A DNA stretch of 64,000 nt, from the NCBI GenBank assembly GCA_017429475.1, contig JAFROX010000006.1, forward strand, positions 126,008 to 190,007. The letters run 5' to 3'. The notes beneath the pieces were generated by a model. The model was not told the origin of the DNA. It saw nothing but the letters and a program-made list of their open reading frames with translations, and did not search any database. Below are positions 7,052-35,844 of the stretch, one piece after another. The position numbers and the translations under genes are program-made. Within the stretch, counting starts at the first letter, position 1. The number at the start of each line of letters is the position of its first letter. The stretch comes from Bacteroidales bacterium. Its GTDB lineage: Bacteria > Bacteroidota > Bacteroidia > Bacteroidales > UBA932.

Positions 7052-8542
7052 TTAGTCGTCGTCAGAATCACCCATTATTATCACCAGATTGTCACCTACC
7101 TGGAGCGGCATGCTGCCGTGGGGCACGAGGAACTTGCCGTCGCGGCGCACCATCATCACACGGATGCCGTGGGGAAGGTGCAGGTCGCGCAGGGTCGCAC
7201 CTCCGGTCAGGTCTTCTTCGGTAACGATATGGTCGCGAAGCATACCCATCTCGTCGGGTATCTCCATTCCGAAAGTCTCAACCTTGGGAGTGTCTTCGTA
7301 GCAGAGCCTGAGCATTTTCGCGAATGAGCCGAGCGTGGTGCCCTGGAAGGCCAGCGAGAAGAGAGTGATAATGAATACGATGTTGAATATGTCATCCGCA
7401 CCGTTTACCCCTTCGACAACGGGATACAGGGCGAAAAGAATGGGACCGGCACCCTTGAGGCCTACCCAGGAGGTAAGCAGCTTTGCACGGCCGGACAGTT
7501 TCCGGAAAGGCAGAAGGCTCAGGAATACGCTTGCCGGACGGGCCACGAACATCATGAACAAGCCTATGAGGATGGCAGGAAGCAGTACCGGGGGCATCTG
7601 TGAAGGCCTTGCCAGCAAACCGAGCACAAGGAACATCACCAACTGCATAAGCCAGGTGAGGCCGTCCATAAAGGTGATGATTTCTTTCCTTTGCTTGAGT
7701 TTGGCTTCGTTGCCGATTATTATGGCTGAGATGTACAGGGCCAGAAGTCCGTTTCCTTTGAGAAGCGACGCGATGCTGTTTGCGAAGAATGCGACGCTGA
7801 GGATAAGGATGGCGGTAAGAGCGAATCCAGGCAGCTTGACCTTGTTAAGCAGCCATTTCGCGGCAAAGCCTACGGCGAAACCTACGGCAACTCCGACTAC
7901 TATCTGAAGCAGGAGCACCAGAAGAGCCTGGCCCACGAGGCCTGCGCTGGTGGCAGACTGTATGCCTTCACCTGTGATCATCATTACGATAATGATGGTA
8001 AGGGTATAAGCCATCGGGTCATTACTTCCTGATTCCAGCTCCAGCATCGGGCCCAGATTCTCCCTCAAGTTCATTTTCTTTCCTCTCAGGATCGAGAAGA
8101 CGGAGGCTGAATCGGTAGACCCCATAACCGCAGCAAGAAGGAAGCAGACGAGCATCGACATCTCCATTGTCTTGCCCAGCACGAAGTAGATGAACAGTCC
8201 GGTGAGGATGACCGTCAGAAGCACGCCCAGGGTGGACAGGATCGAGCCTTGCCACAGCACAGGCTTGGTCTCCTTGAGGGAGGTCTCGAGACCTGCAGTG
8301 AGAAGGATGATGGTCATTGCAAAATGGCCGATGGCCTCCGCACCCTCATAATCTTCGAAATGGACTCCGAGTCCGTCAGAGCCTGCAAGCATTCCCAGAA
8401 GCAGGAACAACAGCAGGGAAGGCACTCCGAATCGGGTGCCAAGTTTGGTGACCATAATGGCCACGAACATCAGTATCGAGCATAACAGCAGCAGGACGTT
8501 GCCGTTAAGAAGGTCGATGGAGAAGATAGACAGCGGCATCAT
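7052..8542 (-). CDS. nhaP2: K+/H+ (CPA1, NhaP2/CvrA-type) antiporter with a C-terminal RCK_C/TrkA-C domain
   Basis: About 12 TM segments, GSNDPMAY and GSTDSASVF motifs, and a C-terminal soluble LRDLHLPHGIRVMMVRRDG...VGDNLVIIM segment. The start codon overlaps the STAS gene stop (ATGA, 8539-8542). Confidence 0.8.
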   Translation of the reverse strand: MMPLSIFSIDLLNGNVLLLLCSILMFVAIMVTKLGTRFGVPSLLLFLLLGMLAGSDGLGVHFEDYEGAEAIGHFAMTIILLTAGLETSLKETKPVLWQGSILSTLGVLLTVILTGLFIYFVLGKTMEMSMLVCFLLAAVMGSTDSASVFSILRGKKMNLRENLGPMLELESGSNDPMAYTLTIIIVMMITGEGIQSATSAGLVGQALLVLLLQIVVGVAVGFAVGFAAKWLLNKVKLPGFALTAILILSVAFFANSIASLLKGNGLLALYISAIIIGNEAKLKQRKEIITFMDGLTWLMQLVMFLVLGLLARPSQMPPVLLPAILIGLFMMFVARPASVFLSLLPFRKLSGRAKLLTSWVGLKGAGPILFALYPVVEGVNGADDIFNIVFIITLFSLAFQGTTLGSFAKMLRLCYEDTPKVETFGMEIPDEMGMLRDHIVTEEDLTGGATLRDLHLPHGIRVMMVRRDGKFLVPHGSMPLQVGDNLVIIMGDSDDD

Positions 8543-8841
8543 TCTATTTCGAAAAGATTAAGGAAACCGGTCATCATGAAAACGCTGCGGATCTCATCAT
8601 TAATGGAGCGCACGATGATCTTTCCTCCCTTTTCTGCTGCAGCTTTGCGAAGGGTGAGGAAAATGCGGAGCCCTGAACTTGAGATGTATGTCAGGTCTTT
8701 GCAGTCCAGCACGATTGTTCCGCGGGCATCTTCCTCAAGTGCCTCCAGCTGCGGTGCGAATTCCTGAGCGGCCGGAGTGTCCATACGGCCGATGAGGAAT
8801 GCTATTACTTCATTGCTTTGCTTGGTAATATTAACTTCCAT
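8539..8841 (-). CDS. STAS-domain protein (anti-sigma-factor-antagonist / RsbV-SpoIIAA type)
   Basis: 100 aa with GRMDTPAAQEF...LDCKDLTYISSSGLRIFL, which carries the conserved phosphorylatable Ser in the SSSGL context. Confidence 0.85.
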   Translation of the reverse strand: MEVNITKQSNEVIAFLIGRMDTPAAQEFAPQLEALEEDARGTIVLDCKDLTYISSSGLRIFLTLRKAAAEKGGKIIVRSINDEIRSVFMMTGFLNLFEIE

Positions 8842-8855
8842 TGTTGTATTGTTTA

Positions 8856-11042
8856 TTATATCATTTTAATCAATGTCAAAATATTTTTCCCGTCTTCCCG
8901 GCGGTATGATACGGAATCCATCAGCTGCCTTACAAGGTGAATGCCAAGGCCTCCGATAGGCCGTTCTTCCAGGCTGGCGTTGATGTCCACTTCTGGCCTT
9001 TGGGTGGGGTCGAAAGGCATTCCGCTGTCCGTTATGATAAAGTCCAGCTGTCCTTTGCGCATTATGGCCTCGATGTCCACGAGTCCGTCAGAGCCCTCAG
9101 GATATGCGTAGAGTATGACATTTGTTACGGCCTCTTCAAGGGCGAGATTAAGTCCCATGGCCATATTCTGCTCCAGTTTCATCTCGGAGGCAATGGTTTC
9201 CACAAAGCCTGCCAGCTGGGGAATCTGTTGGATATCGTTGTGAAGGACAAGATGTCGTTCACTGGCGTAGGGTTTTGTATCGTTCATATAGTGTATGAAT
9301 AGCATTGTCAGATCGTCGCTTTGCGGTGCCTTGCCGACGAAAGTGTCGACAGCCGCCTTCATAGTATCGAGATGTTCCTGCGCGCTGCAGTGCTTTTGGA
9401 AATTAGCCTCGACGCGTTGCATCGTGAACTCTTCGTCGTTAGCGTTGACGGCTTCGTTGAGTCCGTCGGTATAGAGCAGCAGGGTGTCATTGTAAGACAG
9501 GTCAGTTTCCTGCTCCTGGAATGACATTTTGGCAATGACGCCAAGCGGAAGGTTCGGAACCACGTCAAGGGTGCGCAACTGGTCGGAGAGGATCAGGGGC
9601 GGATTGTGTCCTGCGTTGCAATATCGCATATGACCCGTTTCCAGATCCAGGATACCAAGGAAGAATGTGACGAACATATTGTTCTCATTCATATCAGCCA
9701 TCGCATCATTCATTGTCGTCACGATTCGCTGCGGGCTCTTTTCGTGCACTGATACAGAACGGAACAGGCTGCGTGTGACGGCCATCACCAGTGAGGCCGG
9801 CACACCCTTGCCGCTGACGTCGCCGATGCAGAAGAACAGTTTGTTATCCCGGATGTAGAAGTCATAAAGATCTCCTCCGACTTCCTTCGCAGGAACCAGG
9901 CAGGCTGCCAGATCGATCTCGTCACGTTCGGGGAAAGGCGGGAACGTATTGGGAATCATCGCCATCTGGATGCCCCGTCCAATCTGGAGTTCGCTTTCCA
10001 TACGTTCCTTCTTCTCGTTCATCTTGTGGTATTTCATTTGGTTCTTGGCAGTGATGCGGAGAATCATAACCAGCATTCCGAGACCCAGCAGCTGGAGCAG
10101 CCTCTCTATGAGCCTTACGCGGCGCATCGAGCCGAATATTTCCTCGTCAGGCACGGCGATGGCCATAGCCCAGCCCGTCTGCTCTACCGGTGCGTAGAAA
10201 ACGTGGAAGAGCTCGCCGTCATTCTCGATCTGGATGGTTCCAGCCTTGTCGGCACGCATATCTGCAATCAGTCTGGCGAATGCCGGCGTGTCATCGACGA
10301 TAGCTGCGACTTCGTCGAGGGTCTTTATGGTGATGTCTCCATCGGGATTGCTGATGAGCACCCTGCCGTCACGGCTTATCACCACCTCCAGTGAGTTGGG
10401 ATATACCTGGGAACTTCCTATGAGCTGTGCCAGCCATTTCAAAGAAATGTCGGCAGTCAGTACCGCTGCCTGCTTGCCATTTACATCCCTTATAGGTATC
10501 GAGTATGTGGTCATTATGATATCTCCGCCACCCGTGTCGAGGTAAGGTTCTGACCAGAAGCCCCTGTCAAGTTCCAGAGGACGGGTGAACCAGGGCTGGC
10601 CGGGGTAGTTGTACTCCTCAGTGGCCAAAGACTTCGTCAGGATGCTTTCTCCCTCGCGGTAGGCATAAGGGGCGTAAAGAGGACGTCTTCTGCTGTAGTT
10701 GGGAACAAGTGCGACGGTAGATCCCATAACCGTAGGGTTGTCTTCGACTATGCGGCTTGCCACGAGGGGCATGCTGTCGAGATAATTGAGGCACCAGCGT
10801 GCTATCCAGATGCTGTTGCGCACTGCGGATTCTGCCTGGTGTGTTGCGTCCACGATCTGCAGTCTGGTGGTTTCCAGCTGGCTTTCAGCTCGCATCTGTG
10901 CTTCTTCCCTGAGGCCCTGCCGGGTGAAATAGTTCTGCAGAAGGGAGGTCGCTTCCAGCGTAAGGGCCGCTACCACGACCAGTAGTACACCTGTTCCTAT
11001 CGATTTTCGTATATTTTTCTGTAATGAATTGATAGACTTCAT
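8856..11042 (-). CDS. Membrane sensor fusing TM, extracytoplasmic double-Cache-like domain, TM, a PP2C (SpoIIE) phosphatase and a C-terminal RsbW/SpoIIAB-like HATPase kinase domain
   Basis: TM1 is GTGVLLVVVAALTL and TM2 is LLQLLGLGMLVMILRI. PP2C motifs are AKEVGGDLYDF, FCIGDVSGKGVPASLVM, YTDGLNEA and QSDDLTMLFI. The C-terminal 130 aa (LALEEAVTNVILYAY...IITDSGMPFD...GGLGIHLVRQLMDSVSY) carry the N, G1 and G2 boxes of anti-sigma serine kinases. Confidence 0.8.
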   Translation of the reverse strand: MKSINSLQKNIRKSIGTGVLLVVVAALTLEATSLLQNYFTRQGLREEAQMRAESQLETTRLQIVDATHQAESAVRNSIWIARWCLNYLDSMPLVASRIVEDNPTVMGSTVALVPNYSRRRPLYAPYAYREGESILTKSLATEEYNYPGQPWFTRPLELDRGFWSEPYLDTGGGDIIMTTYSIPIRDVNGKQAAVLTADISLKWLAQLIGSSQVYPNSLEVVISRDGRVLISNPDGDITIKTLDEVAAIVDDTPAFARLIADMRADKAGTIQIENDGELFHVFYAPVEQTGWAMAIAVPDEEIFGSMRRVRLIERLLQLLGLGMLVMILRITAKNQMKYHKMNEKKERMESELQIGRGIQMAMIPNTFPPFPERDEIDLAACLVPAKEVGGDLYDFYIRDNKLFFCIGDVSGKGVPASLVMAVTRSLFRSVSVHEKSPQRIVTTMNDAMADMNENNMFVTFFLGILDLETGHMRYCNAGHNPPLILSDQLRTLDVVPNLPLGVIAKMSFQEQETDLSYNDTLLLYTDGLNEAVNANDEEFTMQRVEANFQKHCSAQEHLDTMKAAVDTFVGKAPQSDDLTMLFIHYMNDTKPYASERHLVLHNDIQQIPQLAGFVETIASEMKLEQNMAMGLNLALEEAVTNVILYAYPEGSDGLVDIEAIMRKGQLDFIITDSGMPFDPTQRPEVDINASLEERPIGGLGIHLVRQLMDSVSYRREDGKNILTLIKMI

Positions 11043-11050
11043 ACTTCCTT

Positions 11051-11890
11051 CTATTTAAGGATTGGATTGAGTGCAACGCGGAGTTCCGGCTTGATTGCGT
11101 GGAGGTCCCGCTCTATGAGGAGATTCTTGAGCCCCGCATAGGGGAGCAGTTCTTCTTCAATGCTTTTAAGCGGGCGGTCCGAACCGAAATAAGCAGGGGC
11201 AAAAAGCTCCCAGAAACGGAATGCCAGGGCTTTGGGCATATGAAAAGTATCCATAATGAACGATTCTTCGCTTAATACGCAGCAAAGATATACCATTCCT
11301 ACGTCAAAAAGACGGTAACCGTAGCAGAAGTCGCCCAAGTCGATAAAAAACCGTTCGTTTCCGGAAATAATGGCGTTGCTGAACTGAAGGTCGCCGTGAA
11401 TTGCAGTGTCGGAGTCGGGAGCATCGGCGATGAAGCGGCAGAGCTTGTCCTTTTCGGAATTCGTGAAGAACGGGTTGTCTGCCAGAAGATGATAATATAC
11501 GTCTTTCACGCTTTCGAACTCAGCTGCATTCACGTGAACGCCGTGAAGATTGAGACACATTCCGGCGAATTCCGTGGCAAACTGCTCTACTTTTCCGGGT
11601 TCATCGGCAGTGGCTCTGGAATACGATTTCTTGTCACGGATTCGGTGGAACAGGATGCCGTAGCGACCGTCTTCGGTGACTACATAGTCGCCGGGTTCGG
11701 GAGTCGGAATGCCGAGGGCATACACTTTCCGGGCCTTCGTCAATTCCTGGACCGACTGGCTCTCCCTGCCAGGCAGGTATAGTTTCAGCATCACTTCCGG
11801 ATCGAGCTTGCTGCTGTAGCTTTCACCATTGAAGCCGCCGCCGGTCAGGACATAGTCGTCTATGGATATCTTAATGGCTTCCATTCCCAA
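11051..11890 (-). CDS. APH/choline-kinase-fold phosphotransferase family protein (substrate unknown)
   Basis: Catalytic loop HGDLQFSNAI (HxDxxxxN) and metal-binding IDLGDF. The start overlaps the upstream HD gene by 20 nt. Confidence 0.65.
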   Translation of the reverse strand: MGMEAIKISIDDYVLTGGGFNGESYSSKLDPEVMLKLYLPGRESQSVQELTKARKVYALGIPTPEPGDYVVTEDGRYGILFHRIRDKKSYSRATADEPGKVEQFATEFAGMCLNLHGVHVNAAEFESVKDVYYHLLADNPFFTNSEKDKLCRFIADAPDSDTAIHGDLQFSNAIISGNERFFIDLGDFCYGYRLFDVGMVYLCCVLSEESFIMDTFHMPKALAFRFWELFAPAYFGSDRPLKSIEEELLPYAGLKNLLIERDLHAIKPELRVALNPILK

Positions 11891-12458
11891 AAACCTGGTC
11901 GATCAGTTGTTCGAATTCCTTGAAGGCATATGTGTCTTTTAGTTCGCGAAGGGATTCCTCAAGCCCGCGATAATGCCATTCGTGGTCCTTGCGGTCCTTT
12001 GTATGGAATAGATTCCACAGATTATCCCCCTGCATTGCGTAGTCCCTGGCGATTGCACGCATATTGGACAGTTTGTCTCCCAAGGCTACGATCTTTGCTT
12101 CGAGCGGAGCGTCGGCGAGACGTTTTATTGCGTCGCGCTTGCGGCTGTGCCAGCTGTCTTCTTCGCTCACGCCTTCTTCGTAGGTGTCGCTCTCCCAGGC
12201 TACGATCGAGGCTACCCTCTCGCCGAATACGTCCTTGAGCTGCTCAAGCGTCACGTCAGTGTCTTCAACCGTGTCGTGAAGGACGGCAGCGGCGAGCAGC
12301 TCCTGGTCGGAGGTCATTGTGGCAACGATTTCCATCGCTTCCATAGGGTGGACTATATAGGGAAAGCCCTTTCCGCGACGTTCCGTTCCGGCGTGGGCTT
12401 TGACGGCAAAGATGATTGCACGGTCCAGAAGAGAAGTATCCATTTTCGTTTTTGCCAT
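11871..12458 (-). CDS. HD-domain small alarmone hydrolase (SpoT/Mesh1-type (p)ppGpp hydrolase domain only)
   Basis: 195 aa with AVKAHAGTERRGKGFPYIVHPMEAMEIV and AAVLHDTVEDT (HD...ED signature of RSH hydrolase domains). Confidence 0.75.
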   Translation of the reverse strand: MAKTKMDTSLLDRAIIFAVKAHAGTERRGKGFPYIVHPMEAMEIVATMTSDQELLAAAVLHDTVEDTDVTLEQLKDVFGERVASIVAWESDTYEEGVSEEDSWHSRKRDAIKRLADAPLEAKIVALGDKLSNMRAIARDYAMQGDNLWNLFHTKDRKDHEWHYRGLEESLRELKDTYAFKEFEQLIDQVFGNGSH

Positions 12459-12465
12459 ATCCGGG

Positions 12466-13533
12466 TTATTTCTGATTCATAAATGGCAGTCCGGCCGCCT
12501 GCTCGGCCATCATTTCGGCCATCATCTCGTTTCCTTGCGAAGGGCCGCTGAGCGCCTCGAGCATATGACGTATACCGGCCTTCCCGCCACCGTTCTTCAT
12601 TATGTATGCTATGCAAAGGTCCTGCGGGCCGAGCGAAGAAGAGATGATGTCGAGGTCGGTCAGCCCTATCTGGTGGCAGGCTATCTGGTATGCGGCGTCG
12701 AAATAATCCTGGACGAGGTGGGAGATGTCACCGAGAGTCTTCATTCCGAGCCACTTGAAGATTTCAAGATAAGGCAGAAGCGACACTTCCTGGATTTCAG
12801 CCTGGTTGACTGCTGCGATACGCTTGTTGAGGCTGTCGAACGGCCTCAGGTCAAGATAGCTGCGGTAAGAATCGCCGTCGAGGGGGACGTCGTCCAGATT
12901 GCCGCTGGCCACGAGAGCCTTCACCCGCCTCCTGTAGTCGGCGAGTTCGCTGCGTATTCTGCTGAACTGCTCGTCGGCCAGCTCAAGCATACCTGCAAGA
13001 CGGTTGAGGTTGCGCAGATAATTTTTCGGCACTTCGATTCCGCTCTTGTAGCCGGTGTCGTGGTTTATGTTGGCCCAGGCGTGCTGCAGGATTGTCCTTA
13101 TCTGGATTTCGAAACGGTAGGGGAAATCGCCCTGAGAACAGATATAGTGAAGCGACATATATCCGAAACTGTCGATTTCGTGAAGTTTGCGCTTGTCGAT
13201 GGTGTTCGTCCAGTCGATGTCGAAAAGACGGTCGATGGCCGAAGAAACCTTGTCCACGTCGTCGATGTAGAAAGTGATGACTCGGATTCCTATGATGTCC
13301 GTGATGTCAGCAAGGGTTTTGTACTTGTTCCCCTTCAGTTCCAGCTTGCCTGCGAGAGAATCTTCTGTCTTGACGCGGTATTCCAGTGCCGCCACGTGAA
13401 TGCCGGCCTCGTCAATGGTCCGCTTCAGCTTTTCAAAAGCTATGGCGGCCTCTTTTTCGAATTGAGGCAGCTTGTCGCGGTATTCCCTTAGAATCGCTTG
13501 GCAATGGGCATCCAGATGTCTCTCCATAAGCAA
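12466..13533 (-). CDS. RelA/SpoT-synthetase-domain protein (small alarmone synthetase) with a roughly 170-aa C-terminal extension of unknown function
   Basis: Nucleotidyltransferase core: RVKTEDSLAGKL, DIIGIRVITFY, GYMSLHYI, EIQIRTILQHAWANINHDTGYK. There is no HD, TGS or ACT domain. Confidence 0.8.
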   Translation of the reverse strand: MLMERHLDAHCQAILREYRDKLPQFEKEAAIAFEKLKRTIDEAGIHVAALEYRVKTEDSLAGKLELKGNKYKTLADITDIIGIRVITFYIDDVDKVSSAIDRLFDIDWTNTIDKRKLHEIDSFGYMSLHYICSQGDFPYRFEIQIRTILQHAWANINHDTGYKSGIEVPKNYLRNLNRLAGMLELADEQFSRIRSELADYRRRVKALVASGNLDDVPLDGDSYRSYLDLRPFDSLNKRIAAVNQAEIQEVSLLPYLEIFKWLGMKTLGDISHLVQDYFDAAYQIACHQIGLTDLDIISSSLGPQDLCIAYIMKNGGGKAGIRHMLEALSGPSQGNEMMAEMMAEQAAGLPFMNQK

Positions 13534-13543
13534 TCGTTATTAT

Positions 13544-14785
13544 TTATTTGCCGCTGTACCGGCCGGCAAAGAGTACTGCGCCGGTGCTTTGCTCAGTGAT
13601 GATATAGATGAACGGATGGTCGGCGTGGAAAATGGGCCTCATCGGTCCGACAGATGTCGCATTTTTTTCAATTGCAGCAACTGAAACGGCTGCTGCCTCA
13701 GAGCCTTCTTCATCGACTTTGATGACTGCATCCTGCTGCACGAAACTCAGCCTGGAGGCTGCCGGCGACATAGCGCTGAAATCTGCGGCAGTGAAGGCAA
13801 GGGGCATACCCATCGCAGAGAGGATGTCGTTGAGTTTGATCTTGAACTTCGTCTCGAATCTGGGAATCCAAAGGTCGATCTCTACTTCGGCAGGTTTCGT
13901 GCGGAGACGGTCCCAGTCAGTGTTTTTCAGTTCGGCGGTTATGTCCGATACCTTGTAGTCGCCCTTGGGCAGCAGTATTATCATTGAAAAAGCACCGTTG
14001 CCGTAAGGCAGGCGGACCATCTGGTATCTGTCATTCTCGTGGTAAGGCACTTCGCTGACCTGCTTCATCATCTTCACTGTGCCGAAGTTTCCGTCTTCAT
14101 CGAAGAAAAGATCGTCGGATGTGGCGTCCTTGGAGAACTGATATACCCACTGGCTCTTGAAATACACGGCGTTCATAAGGTAGGCGAGAATGCGTGGATC
14201 CACGTTGTCGATGACTTTTGGTATCAGTCCCTCTGTCTGCTTAGAGCACCAGCCGTTGATTGCCTGGAGGGCTTCTTCGTTGTTCGCGAAGTCCAGATTG
14301 GACACTTCGGCGTCGAAAAACTTGCTCACGTCTTTCCTGAAAGAGTCGTTGAGCGGCCAGCCGTCATCCAGGAAGATGGCATTGGCGATGTTCAGTTTGG
14401 TCTTGTTGTCGAGATTCGGAAGCTGCTGGAGCATCGAGAGGCAGAACTGGTTTACCTCGTCCACTTCGCCGGCGCCGTAGCCTAGGACTTTGGCTATCTG
14501 GGCGGCGGTTTCGCCATTGGCTCCGTCCAGAAGCATTCCAAGCAGGAACTGCATGCTCAGGGGTGAGACTACGAAGTCCTCTTTGGCTTCTTTATTTATG
14601 CGGTCGATGAAATCGAAAGTGAATGTGCCGCCCTTCTCGACGAAGCCGGCGGCTTTGGTAGAAAGCTCCAGGGGTCTGTAGGTGTTGTCTGCGTCATTTC
14701 CGCTGACTTCCGGAATCTCCCCGCAGGAAACTACTGTCATCAGCGTCAAGGCTGCGCCCGCAGCAAGGAATAACAAGTGTTTCAT
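13544..14785 (-). CDS. Serpin-family lipoprotein (paralog 1)
   Basis: Lipobox MTVVSC. Serpin core: SPLSMQFLLGMLLDGANGETA, NAVYFKSQW. Hinge and reactive-centre loop: VDEEGSEAAAVSVAAIEKNATSVGPMRPI, followed by FHADHPFIYII. Confidence 0.88.
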   Translation of the reverse strand: MKHLLFLAAGAALTLMTVVSCGEIPEVSGNDADNTYRPLELSTKAAGFVEKGGTFTFDFIDRINKEAKEDFVVSPLSMQFLLGMLLDGANGETAAQIAKVLGYGAGEVDEVNQFCLSMLQQLPNLDNKTKLNIANAIFLDDGWPLNDSFRKDVSKFFDAEVSNLDFANNEEALQAINGWCSKQTEGLIPKVIDNVDPRILAYLMNAVYFKSQWVYQFSKDATSDDLFFDEDGNFGTVKMMKQVSEVPYHENDRYQMVRLPYGNGAFSMIILLPKGDYKVSDITAELKNTDWDRLRTKPAEVEIDLWIPRFETKFKIKLNDILSAMGMPLAFTAADFSAMSPAASRLSFVQQDAVIKVDEEGSEAAAVSVAAIEKNATSVGPMRPIFHADHPFIYIITEQSTGAVLFAGRYSGK

Positions 14786-14831: not shown

Positions 14832-14861
14832 AAAAAACATGAGGCCCTCTTGGGGCCCCAT
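14832..14861 (-). terminator. Strong intrinsic terminator after serpin 2
   Basis: The minus-strand RNA is AUGGGGCCC-CAAGA-GGGCCUCAU (9-bp GC-rich stem) followed by GUUUUUU, about 25 nt past the serpin-2 stop. It is the only obvious terminator inside the 18075-4159 minus-strand block. Confidence 0.8.
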
Positions 14862-14886
14862 AGATAATCAAATGTGTTGACCGTTC

Positions 14887-16131
14887 CTATTTGCCGCTGT
14901 ACTTTCCGGCAAAGATGATGGCTCCTGTGCTGTGTTCGGTGATGAGATAGAGGAATGGCCTGTCGGCGTGGAAGACCACGCGGCTTCCTGGACGGATGTC
15001 CATTGTTCCTTCAGGTTCGCCTTTGGATACCGAGGCGGCCTTCGTGCCTTCTTCATCGACCTTGATGACTGCATCCTGGGTGACAAGACTGAGATGCAGT
15101 GCAAATTCCGACATGGCCTTGAAGTCGGCGGCGTCCTTGTCGAATGCAGTGGGCATGCCCATAGCTGAGAGAATGTCATTCAGTTCGATCCTGAATTTTG
15201 TTTCGAACTTGGGAAGCCACAAGTCCACATCGCAACTGACCATATTGCGGAAGAAGTCCGACCAAGTCTCGCCGTTCAGCGATTCCAGAATATCCTCGAG
15301 TGTAAACCCTTCATCCGGAAGCACGACCACCATACTGTATGCTCTGTTCCCGTAAGGAAGGCGTACTGCCGTGAAGACATCGGTGCCCTGGCAAAGCAGG
15401 GTAGAATGATTCTTCATCATCGGTACGTTCTTTTTCGCGCCGTTTCCAAGATTGAACGGTTCATCCTTTGTCTGCCCCTTGTCGAACTTCAGGCTCTCTA
15501 CCCACTGGCTCTTGAAGTATATCGCATTCATCAGGATGGCCAGTTTCCCTTCATTCACGTCTTTTATGATTTCAGGAATGAGTCCGTCAGTATGGTCGGA
15601 ACACCATTTGTTGATTTTCTTGACGGTTCCGGCACGGTCGGAGAAGTCCATATTTTCCACCTCAGCCTCAAAGAATTTGCTGACAGTCGTCTTGTAGTTT
15701 TCTCTCAAAGGCAATCTCTGATTGACCACGATGGCATTTGCGATTTCGAGCGTTGTCTGCCTGTCGAGATACGGAAGCTGCCTCAGCATCTGAAGGCAGA
15801 AGTCATTGACGGCATCAACCTCGTCCGCGCCATATCCAAGGACCTTGCATATCTCGTCGGCGGTCTGACCCTGGGCACCGTTCAGAAGCATTCCAAGCAG
15901 GAACTGCATACTGAGAGGAGAAGTAATGAAATCTCCGTCAGTGACGGCGTTCACCTGGCCGATGAAGTTTATGGCGAAAGAGTTTCCTTCCTTGACATAG
16001 GTTGAAGCCTTGCTGTCGGCGGGCATATCGAGTGGCCGATAGGGATTGGCGCGCCCCGGATCACCGGTTGAGCACGAAATGCAACCAAGGGCAAAGATTG
16101 TGAGTGCTGTTATTATCAGTAAACGTTTCAT
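14887..16131 (-). CDS. Serpin-family lipoprotein (paralog 2)
   Basis: Lipobox LGCISC. It shares SPLSMQFLLGMLLNGAQGQTA, NAIYFKSQW and FHADRPFLYLI with paralog 1. Its reactive-centre loop differs: VDEEGTKAASVSKGEPEGTMDIRPGSRVV. Confidence 0.88.
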   Translation of the reverse strand: MKRLLIITALTIFALGCISCSTGDPGRANPYRPLDMPADSKASTYVKEGNSFAINFIGQVNAVTDGDFITSPLSMQFLLGMLLNGAQGQTADEICKVLGYGADEVDAVNDFCLQMLRQLPYLDRQTTLEIANAIVVNQRLPLRENYKTTVSKFFEAEVENMDFSDRAGTVKKINKWCSDHTDGLIPEIIKDVNEGKLAILMNAIYFKSQWVESLKFDKGQTKDEPFNLGNGAKKNVPMMKNHSTLLCQGTDVFTAVRLPYGNRAYSMVVVLPDEGFTLEDILESLNGETWSDFFRNMVSCDVDLWLPKFETKFRIELNDILSAMGMPTAFDKDAADFKAMSEFALHLSLVTQDAVIKVDEEGTKAASVSKGEPEGTMDIRPGSRVVFHADRPFLYLITEHSTGAIIFAGKYSGK

Positions 16132-16147
16132 AATAATGATAATGCTT

Positions 16148-17518
16148 CTATAAATTGATTCTGAGGCCTGTAGCCAGGGAGAACATCAAGGGGTTCTCGC
16201 TGCGGTATGTTGCCAGCACGCGATTCCTTGAAGGTGCGGTCCAGCTCAGTTCTGGCTCCAGATAAAGACCGACGCGCCGGTTGATGTTGAACTGGACTCC
16301 TCCTGCTCCCAGCAGAGAGAAGCTCAGTCCGTCTTTTGTTTCAATCAAGTCGTGGTTGAGTGTCGCCCCAAGGCAGTAATCTCCCTCGATTCCTCCGCCA
16401 AGGTATACATCCAGCCACCTGCCTGAGGCCAGCATCCAGTCCAGGCGCACAGGAATGCCAAGGTAATGCACATTCTGTGTCCTTTCATAATCGTAGCGGT
16501 AGTTGCTGTATTTGAGTGAGACTTTGGACAGATACTTTGAGTATTGAAGTCCGGTCACAACAGAAAGCCTGTCAGAAACCGGAATCCTTGCAGACAGTCC
16601 TAATTTCAGCGGGATGTTGTGCTCCGCGTCTGTTACGGAATAATCGAACTCCGGTGTGGGAGACTGGTGATTGCCTGAGGGCTGGCTGGGCGATGATGCC
16701 ATATAATAGTAGACAGATCCAGGAAGAGGCGTATTGCTTGATTTGACAGCGTAGTCAGCCAAGGGGCTTGCCGAGGCAAGTCTCAAGATAGCCATTTCCG
16801 GTGCAGACCCTAATTGGTCGGGGGCAAGCGAAGCCAGGATCGGAATGGCTGCCGCCAGAAGTCCGCCGCCGGCAACAACGCCGACCGCAGGCCCGACTTT
16901 AATGCCGATCGGTTTGGATACGGTGACTTCGGGGATTTGCGGAGTGTAAGGGGTTATTGAGTTGTTGCCGCCGGTCCTCGTGGTCTGGACTGCAGGGGTA
17001 TCCTGGCCGGGGTCGGAAGCTACAGTCGGTACGGCGGCTTCATCCTGAGTTTCGGGGCTGTTTGCAGCTTCTTCCGGTTCAGTTCCAGCAGTTGCATCTG
17101 TTTCGGTTCCGGCCGCGGCCGTCTGTGTTTCTGTCTCAGTATCTTGCCGGCCTACGGCTGGCTGCCGTGTCGTCTTCGGTGTCACGGCCTGTGCTATGAG
17201 TGGTTGAGCCGGTGCCGGTTCGACTGCTTCTACTGCGTCTGTGGAGTCTGTGGAGTCGGTGATGGCGGCGACGGGTGTGGTCGGCTGCTGGATAGTCCGG
17301 ATGCCTTCGTCAGTTGTCCCCGGCTTGCCGAGGAACAGGAATGCCGCAAGTCCTGCTGCGACGGCGGCGGGCACGATCCAGATCAGGGGAGAGCGTCTTG
17401 AAGGAGCTGGACTGCCTGCAGCTTCCCTGCGGGCACGGAACTCGGCAAGACTACCCTCCGGAAGGGGACTTTCATACCCTTCCAGCTTGTCTTTTATTAT
17501 GTCTTCCCAGTTTTTCAT
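16148..17518 (-). CDS. Putative anti-sigma factor fused through a low-complexity linker to a C-terminal outer-membrane beta-barrel (PorT/OmpA-barrel-like) domain
   Basis: The 4-nt start overlap with the ECF sigma stop is the usual anti-sigma position. It has a short cytoplasmic N-terminus, a TM (LIWIVPAAVAAGLAAFLFL) and a roughly 130-aa T/A/P/E/Q-rich linker that includes TDSTDSTD. The C-terminus has alternating-hydrophobic strands ending LATGLRINL. Confidence 0.55.
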   Translation of the reverse strand: MKNWEDIIKDKLEGYESPLPEGSLAEFRARREAAGSPAPSRRSPLIWIVPAAVAAGLAAFLFLGKPGTTDEGIRTIQQPTTPVAAITDSTDSTDAVEAVEPAPAQPLIAQAVTPKTTRQPAVGRQDTETETQTAAAGTETDATAGTEPEEAANSPETQDEAAVPTVASDPGQDTPAVQTTRTGGNNSITPYTPQIPEVTVSKPIGIKVGPAVGVVAGGGLLAAAIPILASLAPDQLGSAPEMAILRLASASPLADYAVKSSNTPLPGSVYYYMASSPSQPSGNHQSPTPEFDYSVTDAEHNIPLKLGLSARIPVSDRLSVVTGLQYSKYLSKVSLKYSNYRYDYERTQNVHYLGIPVRLDWMLASGRWLDVYLGGGIEGDYCLGATLNHDLIETKDGLSFSLLGAGGVQFNINRRVGLYLEPELSWTAPSRNRVLATYRSENPLMFSLATGLRINL

Positions 17519-18075
17519 CGTTCCTTTTCCTTCAAATATTGTCTTATGTTTTCTTTCAATTGTTTCCGGGCTTTTGTCAGCACTCCGGCCGAGCCCTTTT
17601 CGCTTATTCCCAGCATCTGTGCGATGTCCCTGTGTGAGTAGCCGTCGATGCAGTAGAGGTTGAAAACCGTCCTTCTCTCGTCACTGAGCCTCGATATCCA
17701 TTCGAGCAGCTTTTCCTGAGGTATGGCTTCCATATCATCTGGATCCGGCTCCGGGATCTTGTCCTGGAATCCTGCATCCAGCGGAACCGTCTTCCATTTC
17801 TGCCGTTTGATATGGTTGATCGTCTTGTTGATGGCAATCCGGCTTATCCAGCCTCCAAGGGACCCTTTCCCGGTGTATCTGTAAGTGGAAATCTTGTCGA
17901 TGGCCTGAATCAGCGACTCCTGCATCAGGTCTTTGGCTTCGTCACCATCTCCCAGATACCTTCTGCAGAGCGTATACACCCTGGCTGCATATCTTCTATA
18001 CAGCTCGTCCTCGGCCTTTATGTCGCTCCGTGAGCAGTGTCTGGCCAGTTCCTGCTCGTCAAGTTCCCTATACAC
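17515..18075 (-). CDS. ECF-type RNA polymerase sigma-70 factor
   Basis: 186 aa. Region 2 is DEAKDLMQESLIQAIDKISTY...WISRIAINKTINHIKRQK. Region 4 HTH is YSHRDIAQMLGISEKGSAGVLTKARKQLK. Confidence 0.88.
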   Translation of the reverse strand: MYRELDEQELARHCSRSDIKAEDELYRRYAARVYTLCRRYLGDGDEAKDLMQESLIQAIDKISTYRYTGKGSLGGWISRIAINKTINHIKRQKWKTVPLDAGFQDKIPEPDPDDMEAIPQEKLLEWISRLSDERRTVFNLYCIDGYSHRDIAQMLGISEKGSAGVLTKARKQLKENIRQYLKEKER

Positions 18076-18237: not shown

Positions 18238-19587
18238 ATGGCATCGAAAATCGGTAAGATACTGGTGGTGGACGACAACCTGGGAATACGCAGGACGCTT
18301 GAAATCCTGCTGCCGCTGCATTTCGAGCAGGTGAAGACGATTCCGTCGCCTGCGACTCTGGTGGCCTCTCTGGAGCAGTTCCGCCCGGACGTGGTGCTGC
18401 TCGATATGAATTTCAACACATCCATCAATACGGGCAACGAAGGCCTTTACTGGGCAGGTGAAATCAAGAAGATGGTGCCGGACGTCGAGGTGGTGCTGTT
18501 TACTGCATATGCTGACATAGCGCTTGCAGTGGAAGGAATGAAGCGCGGAGCCTTCGACTTCATCGTCAAGCCCTGGGACAACGAAAAGCTGATTGAAGTG
18601 CTGACGGCTGCACGGGACAAGGCCCGCAAGGCGATGAAGCGTGATGTCAGGACAAATCCGAGTCAGGCTGACAGCAATGCTATGTTCTGGGGCGGCTCAA
18701 AGTCTATGGCTGCCATACTGAGGACTGTCGAAAAGATCGCTCCCACGGATGCCACGGTCCTCATCACAGGTGAGAACGGTACGGGAAAGGACGTGCTTGC
18801 CCGCGAGATTCACTCCCGCAGCCTGCGCAGCAGGAAGCAGATGGTGGCGGTCGATGCCGGCGCCATCACCGAGACGCTTTTCGAGAGCGAGCTCTTCGGT
18901 CACGTGAAAGGAGCCTTCACCGATGCACACGCCGACCACGTGGGCAAGTTCGAGCAGGCCGACGGAGGTACGCTGTTCCTCGATGAGATCGGCAACATTC
19001 CGCTGCACCTACAGGCAAAGTTGCTGAGGGTTCTCCAGAACCGCAGCGTGGTGAGGGTAGGAGGCACTCAGGCCATTCCGGTGAACATCAGGCTGATCTG
19101 TGCCACCAATATGGATTTGGAGCAACTGGTGCGCGAAGGACGTTTCCGCGAGGACCTCTATTACCGCATCAATACAGTGCACATCGCCCTTCCTCCGTTA
19201 AGGGAAAGGAAGGAAGACATCGCTCCGCTTGCCCAGATGTTCCTGGAGAGGTTCGCCCTGAAATACCACCGCCCGCTGTCGGGACTTACCCCGGATGCGG
19301 CGGCGATGCTTACCGAGAACCGCTGGAGCGGCAACATCCGCGAACTGGGCAACTGCATAGAGAAGGCAGTGATCCTTTCGGAGGGCAACGTCCTTACTGC
19401 AAACGATATCCAGCTGGAGGCCGCCAAGCCTGCCGGCAAGACCATAAAGGCAGCCAGCGAAGCTGAGGAGGAACGGCTGGTCCGCGAGGCTATGGAGCGC
19501 ACGGACGGGAACATCTCCGCAGCGGCGAAGATGCTCGGAGTCAGCCGTCCGACCCTGTACGCAAAACTTAAAAAGTACGGTCTATGA
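18238..19587 (+). CDS. Sigma-54-dependent (NtrC/Fis-family) response regulator
   Basis: Receiver domain (ILVVDDN...VVLLDMNF...KP), AAA+ domain with Walker [24 protein letters not shown] (GAFTGA-type sigma-54 contact loop) and FLDEIG, plus a C-terminal Fis-type HTH ([22 protein letters not shown]). Confidence 0.9.
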
Positions 19588-20465
19588 CGTTCACAGTGTG
19601 GCATATCGTAGGTGCTTGCGTCATTGTGGCTGTCGTAGCTGCGGTGACAGCAACGCTCAGGACCAGACGCAAGGCCATCAAGAAGGTCTCCTATATGATG
19701 GATGCCCTGGAGGATGGGGAACTCAATTTCCGCTTCAAGGACAGCAACAAGTTCAACCGCACGCTGAACCGTATCCGCACCATTTTCGAGACCCAGAGGC
19801 AGGCCCACGAGCAGGATTCCTGGACCAAGCTTATACGCGTGCTGACCCACGAGATAATGAACACCGTGTCGCCTATTGCGTCTCTCTCCGATGCGATGGC
19901 AAAGTCGGTCGATGAGAACGGCCGCAGCGAGCTTGACCTCAAGGCCGGTCTGGAGACTATCTCCGATTCGTCCAAGAACCTGATCGATTTCGTGCAGACC
20001 TACCGGCAGCTCTCCGGAGTTGCTAAACCTGTCCGCAAGGCGCTGGACCTCCAGGAACTGATGGACAGCATCATCGGCCTGAACACCGAATTTGCGGCTG
20101 CCTGCGGTGCAGAGTGCCGCTATCATCCCGAGGAACCGGACCTTATGATCTATGCCGACGAGGGCCAGATCTCCCAGATTCTCATCAACCTTATCAAGAA
20201 CGCCCTGCAGGCCGGAGCGAAGCACGTCGACATCAGCGCCCGGATGGGCAAGGACGACGAGGTGATAGTGCTGGTGGCCAACGACGGCGAACCTATTCCT
20301 CCCGCCGCACAGGAACAGATCTTCATACCCTTCTATACTACAAAAAAGGAAGGCTCAGGCATAGGCCTGAGCATTTCCCGCCAGATAATGCGTAACCACA
20401 ACGGCAGCATAGAGCTCGACTCCAGCGACGCCGGCCGCACCGCCTTCCGTCTGGAGTTCAGGTAG
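19584..20465 (+). CDS. Histidine kinase with one N-terminal TM and no extracytoplasmic sensor domain
   Basis: The start overlaps the regulator stop (ATGA). Single TM WHIVGACVIVAVVAAVTATL beginning at residue 6. H-box LTHEIMNTVSPI, N-box LINLIKNALQA, G-boxes NDGEPIP and GSGIGLSISRQIM. Confidence 0.88.
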   Translation: MTFTVWHIVGACVIVAVVAAVTATLRTRRKAIKKVSYMMDALEDGELNFRFKDSNKFNRTLNRIRTIFETQRQAHEQDSWTKLIRVLTHEIMNTVSPIASLSDAMAKSVDENGRSELDLKAGLETISDSSKNLIDFVQTYRQLSGVAKPVRKALDLQELMDSIIGLNTEFAAACGAECRYHPEEPDLMIYADEGQISQILINLIKNALQAGAKHVDISARMGKDDEVIVLVANDGEPIPPAAQEQIFIPFYTTKKEGSGIGLSISRQIMRNHNGSIELDSSDAGRTAFRLEFR

Positions 20466-20493
20466 GCCCCAGACTTCAGTTCCGCCAGCATAG

Positions 20494-20547
20494 TGTAAAG
20501 CGGAATTGTAAAGAGAAAAGTGTAAAGAGTTGTAAAGACCTTTACAC
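20494..20547. promoter_or_regulatory. Array of four direct TGTAAAG heptamers plus one inverted copy (last pair forms TTGTAAAG-AC-CTTTACAC); candidate enhancer-binding sites and/or weak terminator
   Basis: TGTAAAG occurs at 20494, 20507, 20521 and 20531, and CTTTACA at 20540, in the 184-nt gap between the kinase stop and the TolC start. It is followed by TTTTTCGTTTTT. Confidence 0.45.
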
Positions 20548-20649
20548 TTTTTCGTTTTTGCGCATTAGGCTTACCTACTGACAATCAGTAATTTGGCTAT
20601 TTTGGTATAATGGATGTTCATTTTTGGCACAAGAAGATTCATTTCATAC

Positions 20650-21984: not shown

Positions 21985-21990
21985 GAAATT

Positions 21991-23247: not shown

Positions 23248-23250
23248 GCG

Positions 23251-25578: not shown

Positions 25579-25600
25579 AAATACAATAAAACATATAACA

Positions 25601-26281
<681 letters not shown>

Positions 26282-26320
26282 GTGCGCCCGCCGTCCGGTA
26301 TTTACGGACGGTAGGAGCAC
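26282..26320 (+). repeat. Intergenic hairpin repeat, copy 1
   Basis: GTGCGCCCGCCGTCCGGTATTTACGGACGGTAGGAGCAC. It starts at the first base after the ATPase stop, and the CCGTCCG/CGGACGG stem is extended by flanking pairs. Confidence 0.8.
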
Positions 26321-26332
26321 TAAAGAACAGAA

Positions 26333-28669: not shown

Positions 28670-28670
28670 T

Positions 28671-31043: not shown

Positions 31044-31045
31044 AA

Positions 31046-31083
31046 GTGCACCCGCCGTCCGGAGATTACGGACGGCAGGAGCG
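31046..31083 (+). repeat. Intergenic hairpin repeat, copy 2
   Basis: GTGCACCCGCCGTCCGGAGATTACGGACGGCAGGAGCG, followed by the conserved leader AAAAAGAGATAAAAATG. Confidence 0.8.
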
Positions 31084-31097
31084 AAAAAGAGATAAAA

Positions 31098-33488: not shown

Positions 33489-33490
33489 AA

Positions 33491-33528
33491 GTGCGCCCGC
33501 CGTCCGGAATTTTCGGACGGCAGGAGCG
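33491..33528 (+). repeat. Intergenic hairpin repeat, copy 3
   Basis: GTGCGCCCGCCGTCCGGAATTTTCGGACGGCAGGAGCG, followed by the same leader AAAAAGAGATAAAAATG. Confidence 0.8.
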
Positions 33529-33542
33529 AAAAAGAGATAAAA

Positions 33543-35837: not shown

Positions 35838-35844
35838 TGATATA

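Follow-up and report, generated by a model that had tools for sequence, protein, structure and literature searches.

In a Bacteroidales bacterium of the gut or rumen we describe a signalling cassette that unites a membrane-anchored sensor, carrying both a PP2C phosphatase and an RsbW-like serine kinase, with a separate STAS protein and, in this lineage, with a K+/H+ antiporter. This list of parts is practically certain: the domains, the conserved catalytic and acceptor residues, the tight gene coupling and a linkage that has survived the shuffling of gene order are all observed. On balance, we favour the reading that this is a partner switch of the HsbR/CrsR/SypE type without a sigma factor, in which a periplasmic dCache domain would provide the input and STAS or the kinase would act on effectors encoded by neighbouring genes. 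If so, it points to an undescribed signalling route in this bacterium and many relatives, directed at ion balance and stress nucleotides and not at a sigma factor.

Organization of the locus

The window (the whole stretch of DNA analysed, 64,000 nucleotides) carries the following features.

7052-8542, minus strand: NhaP2/CvrA-type K+/H+ antiporter (CPA1), 496 aa, with C-terminal TrkA_C (RCK_C); PF00999 Na_H_Exchanger and PF02080
7064-7201, minus strand: antiporter TrkA_C/RCK_C (aa 448-493), candidate site for docking or ligand binding; PF02080, E=6.1e-09
8539-8841, minus strand: single-domain STAS protein, 100 aa, anti-sigma-antagonist family, presumed substrate of the kinase and phosphatase; PF01740, E=2.1e-16
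8677-8679, minus strand: codon of Ser55, predicted phospho-acceptor, aligned with the SpoIIAA phospho-serine
8856-11042, minus strand: bifunctional membrane sensor (the fusion, FUS), 728 aa, TM1-periplasmic dCache-TM2-PP2C (SpoIIE-type)-RsbW/SpoIIAB-type serine kinase; Pfam, hydropathy and PDB matches
8865-9239, minus strand: RsbW-like GHKL serine-kinase domain, aa 602-726; PF13581 HATPase_c_2, E=1.2e-25
9291-9848, minus strand: PP2C/SpoIIE phosphatase domain, aa 399-584; PF07228, E=1.5e-48
10125-10886, minus strand: periplasmic dCache domain, aa 53-306; PDB 3lic_A, E=3.1e-21; PF22673, PF02743
11051-11890, minus strand: APH-fold phosphotransferase, TIGR02172-like; PF01636; TIGR02172 with 211 bits, just below the cut-off of 228.2
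11871-12458, minus strand: small alarmone hydrolase-like HD_4 protein; PF13328, E=3.9e-19
12466-13533, minus strand: small alarmone synthetase (SAS), RelQ/RelP-like N-terminal half; PF04607; PDB 3l9d, E=7.4e-13
14838-14862, minus strand: terminator-like hairpin plus T-run, upstream bound of the co-directional string, by consensus match only

The ORFs of the fusion, STAS and antiporter have the positions given in an earlier note on this DNA, and its domain reading agrees with Pfam and NCBIfam. The junction sequence likewise displays the two features reported there, a 14-nt gap between the fusion and STAS genes and an ATGA at 8539-8542 shared by the STAS stop and the antiporter start. However, the unit is larger than the sensor-STAS-antiporter trio. 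Whereas the note let it begin at the fusion gene (11042), it is directly preceded by the genes of the APH-fold kinase, which ends only 8 nt away, of the HD hydrolase and of SAS, and a tight co-directional string spans 14785 to 4159. That the unit lacks a sigma factor was borne out: there is none in the conserved unit, and the nearest such gene, of an ECF sigma (17515-18075), lies beyond the hairpin. Serpin, YhfC and Sde182-like genes, which are not conserved partners of the module, are packed equally tightly in the window.

The sensor and the STAS protein

According to hydropathy, the fusion has transmembrane segments at aa 11-29 and 312-330, on either side of the Cache domain. Over aa 97-295 the latter matched MCP-like_PDC_1 (93 bits) and dCache_1 (49.2 bits, cut-off 45) in Pfam, and it is the most divergent part of the protein among relatives (22-53% identity); the ectodomain of Chlamydia RsbU is Cache-like as well. 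The PP2C motifs GDVSGKG (407), TDG (525) and SDD (575), and the N-box EEAVTN (636), G1 DSGMPF (672) and G2 GGLG (697) of the kinase, were invariant among 10 relatives of 58-100% identity. The kinase domain, which weakly matched the RsbW and SpoIIAB equivalogs of NCBIfam, is a stand-alone gene of 135-151 aa in some relatives. Among solved structures, the fusion matched the dCache ectodomain 3lic, RsbW (6m36), SpoIIAB (1th8) and the PP2C-kinase fusion Rv1364c (3ke6), the last giving the best contiguous alignment (aa 377-674, E=7.7e-14). A partial NCBIfam match to the REC-PP2C regulator RssB was accompanied by no Response_reg match in Pfam, and at least 7994 matches to the full-length family were obtained among the 8000 candidates scored.

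The STAS protein scored 66.9 bits against the anti-sigma-factor antagonist model TIGR00377 (cut-off 53.45) and aligned to the SpoIIAA and RsbV structures, with Ser55 opposite the SpoIIAA phospho-serine. Within the family, Ser55 and R59 were conserved in 75/75 sequences and G57 in 74/75. Similarity to MlaB was only weak (NF033618 21 bits, cut-off 90; PDB E of about 5e-3).

Comparison with known partner switches

Like the present protein, Rv1364c of Mycobacterium tuberculosis fuses PP2C and kinase. It is cytoplasmic and tied to SigF, has PAS as its input domain and carries STAS fused at the C-terminus, whereas here STAS is encoded separately, a periplasmic Cache provides the input and there is no linked sigma factor. 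SypE of Vibrio fischeri is also cytoplasmic, with the order kinase-REC-PP2C and biofilm polysaccharide as its output. It works as a dual serine kinase/phosphatase on the STAS protein SypA, which when unphosphorylated drives a non-sigma output (PMC8256260). HsbR-HsbA of Pseudomonas aeruginosa and CrsR-CrsA of Shewanella oneidensis consist, as here, of a PP2C followed by an RsbW-like kinase/anti-sigma domain in one chain and of an adjacent single-domain STAS, whose phosphorylation state picks the binding partner (PMC6482189). In those two systems, however, the input is a cytoplasmic receiver domain instead of a membrane-anchored TM-dCache-TM, and the conserved neighbours are not the alarmone enzymes and RCK_C transporters seen here. 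The Chlamydia RsbU/RsbW/RsbV system shares the membrane-anchored PP2C sensor phosphatase and has no SigB/SigF-type sigma (PMC4552016), but its RsbW is a separate protein targeting the primary sigma-66, and no link to transporters or alarmone enzymes has been reported for it. Thus, the combination of kinase and phosphatase in one chain, which the earlier note had singled out, is present according to Pfam but is an architecture already known from HsbR/CrsR (PMC6482189), SypE (PMC8256260) and Rv1364c.

Conservation of the cassette

The fusion-STAS pair (the module) is a widespread Bacteroidales cassette. We compared 81 species-level loci; most stem from metagenomes of rumen and gut, and they are phylogenetically related, so that the counts overstate independent events. 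STAS was present in 71 of them and in the co-directional run of the fusion in 66. The commonest partners had been overlooked before: SAS accompanied the module in 31/81 loci and in several gene orders, the APH-fold kinase in 23-24 and the HD hydrolase in 20-21. In the closest relatives of the window's locus, the slot after STAS can be filled by an OPT transporter (L008, L017) or by no same-strand gene, and other copies of the cassette have an ABC-2 transporter, a VgrG-like gene or an NRPS cluster beside them. Given such promiscuity, the contact partner of the cassette cannot be read from adjacency alone.

No sigma gene was a conserved neighbour of the module across the 81 loci. This bears on the possibility that the RsbW-like domain sequesters a remote primary or ECF sigma, as in a classical anti-sigma switch, the neighbours being only a co-transcribed regulon. 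We consider this improbable. Bacteroidales carry many ECF sigma genes, and we know of no SigB/SigF-type or RpoS-type target, nor of the HsbR/CrsR targets RpoS and FlgM, in Bacteroidota. An ECF sigma gene cluster (c41) did occur in 5/81 loci, including three where it shared the co-directional run, and the window has one such gene at 17515-18075, but the frequency of 5/81 may be near chance. There are precedents, since RsbW of Chlamydia has the primary sigma as its binding partner, and the gene of that sigma has not been described as belonging to the rsb genes (PMC4552016), and since CrsR and HsbR bind RpoS (PMC6482189). Nevertheless, a remote sigma would leave unexplained why transporter genes stand between the kinase and STAS genes, and why linkage persists through five or six rearrangements.

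Linkage to RCK_C-bearing transporters

With 518.7 bits, the antiporter passed the equivalog cut-off (355) of the potassium/proton antiporter model NF003716; it displays the motifs STD (142) and SND (173) and shares the C-terminal TrkA_C/RCK_C with NhaP2/CvrA antiporters. In the literature searched, antiporters of this type had no reported connection with partner switches or alarmone synthetases, and the subfamily in the window has no known ligand or protein partner. When the subfamily of at least 56% identity was collapsed at 90% and usable flanks were required, 17/17 informative lineages had the antiporter inside the cluster, while homologs of 50% identity or less were not linked to it. The linkage was kept through five or six gene orders, as follows (ANTI, antiporter).

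SAS-HD-APH-FUS-STAS-ANTI
SAS-HD-APH-kinase-only gene-STAS-ANTI, the kinase replacing FUS
SAS-FUS-ANTI-STAS-HD-APH
FUS-ANTI-STAS-x-SAS-HD-APH
SAS-(CMP-kinase-like)-HD-APH-ANTI-kinase-STAS
SAS-HD-APH-ANTI-FUS-STAS plus a second, convergent antiporter

The adjacency described in the earlier note is thus conserved outside this genome. Neighbourhood statistics sustain it from the antiporter side; from the module side, by contrast, it is clade-limited, with an antiporter in only 7/81 loci.

In other lineages, an SLC13/CitMHS permease with TrkA_C, unrelated to the antiporter, fills the same slot, either directly behind STAS or separating it from FUS or from a stand-alone kinase (L022, L043, L044 and L052; 4/6 sampled homologs). 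TrkA_C genes occupied 11/177 module-adjacent slots against 1/780 far-flank slots, as scored with an HMM built only from these two transporter families. A comparison of linked and unlinked SLC13 permeases disclosed no TrkA_C-specific divergence. The frequent insertion of the transporter gene between those of the kinase and its presumed substrate is compatible with co-assembly. Because of the antiporter linkage and the second TrkA_C family in the same slot, functional coupling of the module to an RCK_C-bearing transporter is well supported, and we believe that a real functional link between module and antiporter is likely.

These data also make it very improbable that switch, alarmone enzymes and antiporter merely share an operon for the same stress and never contact one another. 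Such co-expression would suit the variable slot after STAS, filled by an antiporter, an OPT transporter or nothing even in close relatives, and the tight packing of non-partner genes (serpin, YhfC, Sde182-like) in the window. However, a dedicated antiporter subfamily stays linked over these rearrangements in 17 lineages and a second, unrelated family has been recruited to its slot, which points to selection beyond shared transcription.

The alarmone-enzyme neighbours

The RelQ/RelP-like catalytic core of SAS is intact, the AF2 model of the protein gave Foldseek matches to SAS1/SAS2, and its C-terminal part (aa ~210-355) is a conserved, family-specific helical domain. In the RelA/SpoT family model, it is the hydrolase part that the HD protein matches. 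These neighbours suggest an indirect route, in which the partner switch would control SAS, much as phosphorylated HsbA acts on the cyclase HsbD, and the SAS product would be the ligand of RCK_C, with no contact between STAS and antiporter. Candidates for that product are (p)ppGpp, (p)ppApp and derivatives that the APH-fold or CMP-kinase-like enzymes would help to make. Binding of c-di-AMP by the RCK_C domains of K+ transporters is well established, and in the c-di-AMP-regulated KtrA, CpaA and KhtT RCK_C is a nucleotide-sensing regulatory domain; yet to our knowledge no RCK_C domain binds (p)ppGpp. The rank of SAS as commonest partner agrees with this route, as do its translational coupling to STAS in many loci (overlaps of -1 or -4 nt; L051, L053, L055, L057, L072), the co-occurrence of SAS and HD with both TrkA_C transporter families, and the extra domain, which could take regulatory input. 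A K+-alarmone link is also known in B. subtilis from the Rel-DarB complex (PDB 8acu). In contrast, a TrkA_C permease accompanies the module with no SAS within the sequence covered in L022, L043, L044, L078, L120 and L125, and we regard the indirect route as rather unlikely.

Proposed mechanism

In the reading that we prefer, in which the sigma-less switch acts on its neighbours, occupancy of the Cache domain by a ligand would tilt the balance between phosphatase and kinase on the same membrane-anchored chain, and this balance would fix the phosphorylation state of Ser55. The cassette is part of a conserved cluster in Bacteroidales, together with the APH-fold kinase, the HD hydrolase and SAS with its additional C-terminal domain and, in the window's lineage, with a dedicated NhaP2-type K+/H+ antiporter that has RCK_C. 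Most likely, STAS, or the kinase domain that binds it, would directly contact the antiporter, plausibly at RCK_C, and/or SAS, so that K+/pH homeostasis and the alarmone level would be adjusted to an extracytoplasmic signal. The phosphorylation and binding steps and the direction of control are what we infer from these data. Docking of STAS itself onto RCK_C seems doubtful, and its direct gating of the antiporter through that domain we purely infer.

We know of no dedicated kinase/phosphatase pair that switches the STAS domains of MlaB or SLC26. There is nonetheless precedent for STAS acting on both kinds of effector: phosphorylated HsbA binds the diguanylate cyclase HsbD, a nucleotide second-messenger synthase (PMC6482189), and membrane transporters are regulated by STAS, accessory in the case of MlaB and the ABC ATPase MlaF (PMC7367683) and fused in SLC26/SulP (PMC8256260, which also reviews partner switches with non-sigma outputs). 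Unlike those transporters, the partners found here are CPA1 or SLC13 proteins with RCK_C.

Results

The genes encoding the sensor-phosphatase-kinase fusion (FUS), the STAS protein and the NhaP2-type K+/H+ antiporter (ANTI) were confirmed on the minus strand at exactly the positions of the earlier note, as were the 14-nt gap between FUS and STAS and the ATGA overlap between STAS and ANTI. The boundary of that three-gene unit was drawn too small, since a trio of alarmone-related genes upstream also belongs to it, with FUS starting 8 nt past the last of them.

Genes of the co-directional string, in order of transcription
13544-14785 (-), serpin gene
12466-13533 (-), RelA_SpoT-domain gene (Pfam), small alarmone synthetase (SAS), preceding the HD gene
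11871-12458 (-), HD_4 alarmone-hydrolase-like gene (HD), overlapped by the APH gene
11051-11890 (-), APH-fold phosphotransferase gene (APH), ending 8 nt before FUS
8856-11042 (-), FUS, 728 aa
8539-8841 (-), STAS protein, 100 aa
7052-8542 (-), ANTI, 496 aa
4159-6246 (-), Sde182-like gene

The string, with gaps of at most 21 nt, runs from the serpin gene through the Sde182-like gene, and has a terminator-like hairpin (14862-14838) as its upstream limit and a convergent gene as its downstream one. The genes for serpin, YhfC and the Sde182-like protein are not conserved partners of the cluster; they stand beside it only where a contig has a copy of the cluster with 99-100% identity (L081, L113 and L114). 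Two serpin genes stand in tandem (13544-14785 and 14887-16131, both on the minus strand) with the terminator-like hairpin between them; their products of 413 and 414 aa match Pfam Serpin at E about 1e-97, and the copy farther downstream ends 10 nt short of the SAS gene. No internal promoter was callable, the Bacteroidota -7 motif TAnnTTTG giving 19 matches in the window vs 18.9 expected; a sigma-70-type promoter scan is not applicable to Bacteroidota. One such motif, TATCTTTG (11283-11290, minus strand), falls inside the APH-like gene, some 240 nt ahead of the FUS start, and could act as an internal promoter, with the motif at chance frequency in the window.

Domains of FUS
aa 97-295 (-), MCP-like_PDC_1 and dCache_1 (Pfam)
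aa 399-584 (-), SpoIIE/PP2C phosphatase domain, PF07228 (Pfam E=1.5e-48)
aa 602-726 (-), HATPase_c_2 kinase domain, PF13581 (Pfam E=1.2e-25)

By hydropathy, a hydrophobic segment stands on either side of the Cache domain (aa 11-29 and 312-330), which places the sensor outside the cytoplasm and both catalytic domains inside. Comparison with solved structures matched aa 53-306 to the dCache ectodomain 3lic (E=3e-21) and the C-terminus to RsbW (6m36) and SpoIIAB (1th8), while Rv1364c, also a PP2C-kinase fusion, aligned contiguously with aa 377-674. The PP2C motifs GDVSGKG, TDG and SDD did not vary in 10 relatives with identity down to 58%, and the N, G1 and G2 boxes of the kinase (EEAVTN, DSGMPF and GGLG) were likewise unchanged in relatives down to that identity. 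The kinase domain missed the RsbW/SpoIIAB equivalog cut-offs (52.7 vs 145) and is thus a member of the family and not an ortholog. The 100-aa STAS ORF passed the anti-sigma-antagonist model TIGR00377 (66.9 bits vs a cut-off of 53.45); its Ser55, the predicted phospho-acceptor, aligned to the SpoIIAA phospho-serine and is kept in all family members (75 of 75). Judged by these matches, three parts of an RsbU/RsbW/RsbV-type module (PP2C, GHKL serine kinase and STAS with its acceptor Ser) are present. ANTI, which carries a Na_H_Exchanger core (PF00999), a C-terminal TrkA_C (RCK_C) domain (PF02080) and the motifs STD and SND, has a predicted potassium/proton antiport activity, with 518.7 bits vs a cut-off of 355 for NF003716, the CPA1 equivalog of NhaP2/CvrA.

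Proteins of about 730 aa with the Cache-PP2C-kinase architecture form a very large Bacteroidales family, with 7994 matches among 8000 candidates scored; nearly all of those listed were full length, and their annotations go no further than "SpoIIE family protein phosphatase" or "RsbU". We surveyed 80 species-representative loci with FUS identities of 32-60%, which together with the window make 81.

Neighbours of FUS in the 81 loci
STAS gene anywhere in the locus, 71/81
STAS gene in the same tight co-directional run as FUS, 66/81
SAS gene, 31/81
APH-fold kinase, 23-24/81
HD hydrolase, 20-21/81
NMT1-type periplasmic binding protein directly upstream of FUS, 20/81
NRPS cluster, 14/81
ABC-2 transporter, mostly between FUS and STAS, 7/81
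K+/H+ antiporter, 7/81
SLC13/CitMHS permease with two TrkA_C domains, 6/81

Counted from the module, therefore, alarmone genes are the main partners of FUS-STAS, in orders that include SAS-HD-APH-FUS-STAS, FUS-STAS-SAS-APH-HD and FUS-STAS-SAS. In close relatives of the window, the position after STAS can hold an OPT transporter replacing ANTI or no same-strand gene; with ANTI in few loci and this slot variable, the antiporter is, from the module's side, a clade-limited addition. ORFs in these loci were ranked by cluster recurrence and not by greedy longest-ORF calling, which chose a 363-aa antisense ORF (12400-13491, plus strand) over the real SAS gene. This ORF is conserved in 20 related loci because the SAS gene beneath it is conserved, and such a shadow is a caution for annotation by ORF length here.

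The N-terminal half of SAS is RelQ/RelP-like (PF04607, E=3.1e-21; PDB 3l9d, 5ded and 6ewz, E down to 7e-13), its model matched SAS1/SAS2 in Foldseek with probability 1.00, and the synthetase fold and conserved catalytic motifs are intact. Since it missed the YjbM equivalog cut-off (59.7 vs 320), it belongs to a subfamily of its own, which has an additional domain at the C-terminus. This domain (aa ~210-355; 12466-12906, minus strand) was predicted as a conserved helical domain with pLDDT 80-95, and gave no Pfam match and no Foldseek match of its own, all Foldseek matches being N-terminal; going by the model, it could plausibly serve as a regulatory surface. The HD protein matched the hydrolase portion of RelA/SpoT. 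As the SAS and HD genes are adjacent, they might be taken for a toxSAS-SAH pair, in which the SAH encoded next to a toxic SAS neutralises it, in a mobile or defence-island context (bioRxiv 10.1101/575399). We consider such a toxin-antitoxin or defence role unlikely, given that across families the pair keeps a stable place in the core genome next to signalling genes. A PADLOC scan assigned no defence system, the only match among the cluster genes being a weak candidate one for SAS (PDC-S33, 50.7 bits).

Three other families recur beside the SAS/HD/APH trio or an SLC13 permease, namely Cytidylate_kin2 (L007, L013, L041, L056, L072 and L099), Y_phosphatase3 (L029, L037, L051, L053 and L072) and the amino-acid-kinase family AA_kinase (L055, L057, L115 and L116). 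Their recurrence suggests nucleotide chemistry past plain (p)ppGpp, and the signalling molecule may be a different one.

The earlier note had proposed a sigma-less partner switch that possibly regulates ANTI, and its adjacency to the antiporter was supported beyond this genome by a reverse test that started from ANTI. In this metagenome scan, loci were labelled, independent precomputed gene calls were added and the set was collapsed at 90% identity. All 17 lineages of the ANTI subfamily (at least 56% identity) with usable flanks were inside the cluster, while homologs of at most 50% identity were unlinked to it. The linked lineages showed five or six gene orders, as follows.

Gene orders around linked antiporters
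SAS-HD-APH-FUS-STAS-ANTI
SAS-HD-APH-kinase-only gene-STAS-ANTI (FUS replaced)
SAS-FUS-ANTI-STAS-HD-APH
FUS-ANTI-STAS-x-SAS-HD-APH
SAS-(Cytidylate_kin2)-HD-APH-ANTI-kinase-STAS
SAS-HD-APH-ANTI-FUS-STAS, then a second, convergent antiporter gene

The product of the kinase-only gene is a clean HATPase_c_2 protein of 138 aa. That the linkage persists through so much gene shuffling points to selection and not accident, and a functional link between the module and ANTI is well supported.

An SLC13/CitMHS permease with TrkA_C, unrelated to the CPA1 antiporters, was found in the same positions, either between FUS and STAS or overlapping the STAS stop (L022, L043, L044 and L052). Four of the six permease homologs sampled were linked to the module and two were unlinked.

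Gene orders around linked SLC13 permeases
NMT1-FUS-permease-STAS
NMT1-FUS-permease-STAS-SAS-HD
NMT1-FUS-permease-STAS-SAS-HD with a second permease copy
kinase-permease-STAS-SAS

Over the 81 loci, which are interrelated, TrkA_C genes occupied 11 of 177 slots adjoining the module vs 1 of 780 farther off (Fisher p=7e-8), as detected with an HMM built solely from the ANTI and SLC13 families and biased towards both; an earlier HMM from ANTI alone was too narrow and missed the permease. A domain-by-domain comparison of linked and unlinked SLC13 permeases disclosed no TrkA_C-specific divergence and was uninformative on a docking site.

Discussion

No conserved sigma-gene neighbour, the classical target of a partner switch, was found among the compared loci, and the sole nearby sigma gene in the window is an ECF sigma (17515-18075, minus strand) beyond the hairpin. 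The phylum is not known to have the sigma factors classically controlled by partner switches. A remote sigma factor encoded elsewhere in the genome may still be the target, the scope of the analysis being the 64-kb window, and this would parallel Chlamydia, where RsbW targets sigma-66 (PMC4552016). The ECF sigma gene overlaps by 4 nt a 456-aa gene (16148-17518, minus strand) with weak outer-membrane beta-barrel matches, and in four other loci (L013, L039, L055 and L057) FUS-STAS has an ECF sigma gene from the same cluster close by.

In a sigma-free mechanism, occupancy of the Cache domain would set the kinase/phosphatase balance and hence the phosphorylation state of STAS Ser55, and STAS, or the kinase domain that it binds, would then act on proteins encoded alongside. 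Outputs other than sigma factors have been reviewed (PMC8256260), and precedents exist both for a nucleotide enzyme, as HsbA in its phosphorylated form binds the cyclase HsbD (PMC6482189), and for a transporter, as MlaB regulates the ABC ATPase MlaF (PMC7367683). STAS did not reach the MlaB equivalog NF033618 (21.1 bits vs a cut-off of 90), and no Mla genes (MlaFED operon) were seen near it in the window neighbourhood by ORFs and Pfam. The carrier itself (CPA1) has no STAS domain and STAS is a separate ORF, unlike the fusion that defines SLC26/SulP. Junctions among the cluster genes are of the translational-coupling type, and the placing of transporter genes between those for kinase and STAS favours a physical complex. 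STAS may dock directly on RCK_C; alternatively, the link may be a relay in which the switch controls SAS and the SAS product binds RCK_C. RCK_C domains of other K+ transporters are c-di-AMP receptors, which speaks for such a relay, while some loci with permease and module are without SAS in the sequence covered, which mildly favours direct control. That the Cache-controlled STAS and kinase domain directly gate RCK_C transporters (NhaP2 and SLC13) and control the dedicated SAS, with no sigma factor involved, is a tentative reading and, taken as a whole, a somewhat doubtful one.

The closest known systems are Rv1364c, SypE and HsbR/CrsR, the last of which shares the PP2C-then-kinase order on one chain and the adjacent STAS gene (PMC6482189). 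These precedents mean that kinase and phosphatase on one chain are not new. FUS is not a member of the HsbR/CrsR family because the defining N-terminal REC input is absent; Pfam gave no Response_reg match in FUS, the input being TM-dCache-TM. New here are a membrane-anchored form with Cache input that makes up an abundant cassette in Bacteroidales, the conserved grouping of this cassette with a SAS/SAH/APH trio of a distinct kind, and the fact that it has recruited two RCK_C-bearing transporter families unrelated to each other; the literature searched described none of the three. Bacteroidales are the dominant group in gut and rumen communities, and in the literature searched we found no description of a partner switch in them or in other Bacteroidota, nor of a STAS link to RCK or SAS. 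Comparative genomics provides candidate outputs in a dedicated K+/H+ antiporter subfamily, SLC13 permeases and the alarmone synthetase/hydrolase/kinase trio. If the sigma-free reading is true, a single extracytoplasmic ligand would be wired post-translationally to K+ and pH homeostasis and to alarmone (stress nucleotide) signalling, a new output class for Bacteroidales partner switching; if the coupling is real, a STAS protein or an alarmone would join the regulators of RCK_C domains as a new kind.

Several further associations were observed. An NMT1/THI5-like gene adjoins a longer FUS paralog (about 780-800 aa) upstream, often with a 4-nt overlap, in the 20 survey loci already counted (L020-L024, L031, L038, L040-L047, L056, L060, L063, L065 and L076) and in L120-L125; all five longer copies with precomputed Pfam labels have a HAMP domain. 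The NMT1/THI5-like protein may be a co-sensor that hands a ligand to the Cache domain. In loci of Muribaculaceae and Prevotellaceae, the genes after FUS-STAS encode an Alginate_exp-like outer-membrane protein and a protein of ~2400 aa named NRPS-like by sequence motifs and not by a Pfam scan (L018, L030, L034-L036, L050, L054, L059, L061, L062, L066, L073 and L080), often with a putative efflux protein and a Pfam-confirmed phosphopantetheinyl transferase, and the cassette may also control secondary-metabolite production. FUS-type sensors of L068, L071 and L077 are without a kinase domain and still have the STAS gene adjacent; for the kinase-less genes of L010, L048 and L058, STAS was not found nearby. 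A VgrG-like protein (1000-1450 aa, Phage_base_V domain) adjoins FUS in L038, L068, L071 and L077.

Elsewhere in the window, the plus-strand region 18238-38175 opens with genes for a response regulator of the sigma-54-dependent type (18238-19587) and for a histidine kinase (19584-20465). OEP and HlyD genes come next, and after them stand six ORFs, each 764-796 aa long; two of the six were scanned, and both are MacB/FtsX-type permeases. The same region contains an ABC ATPase (25601-26281, plus strand).
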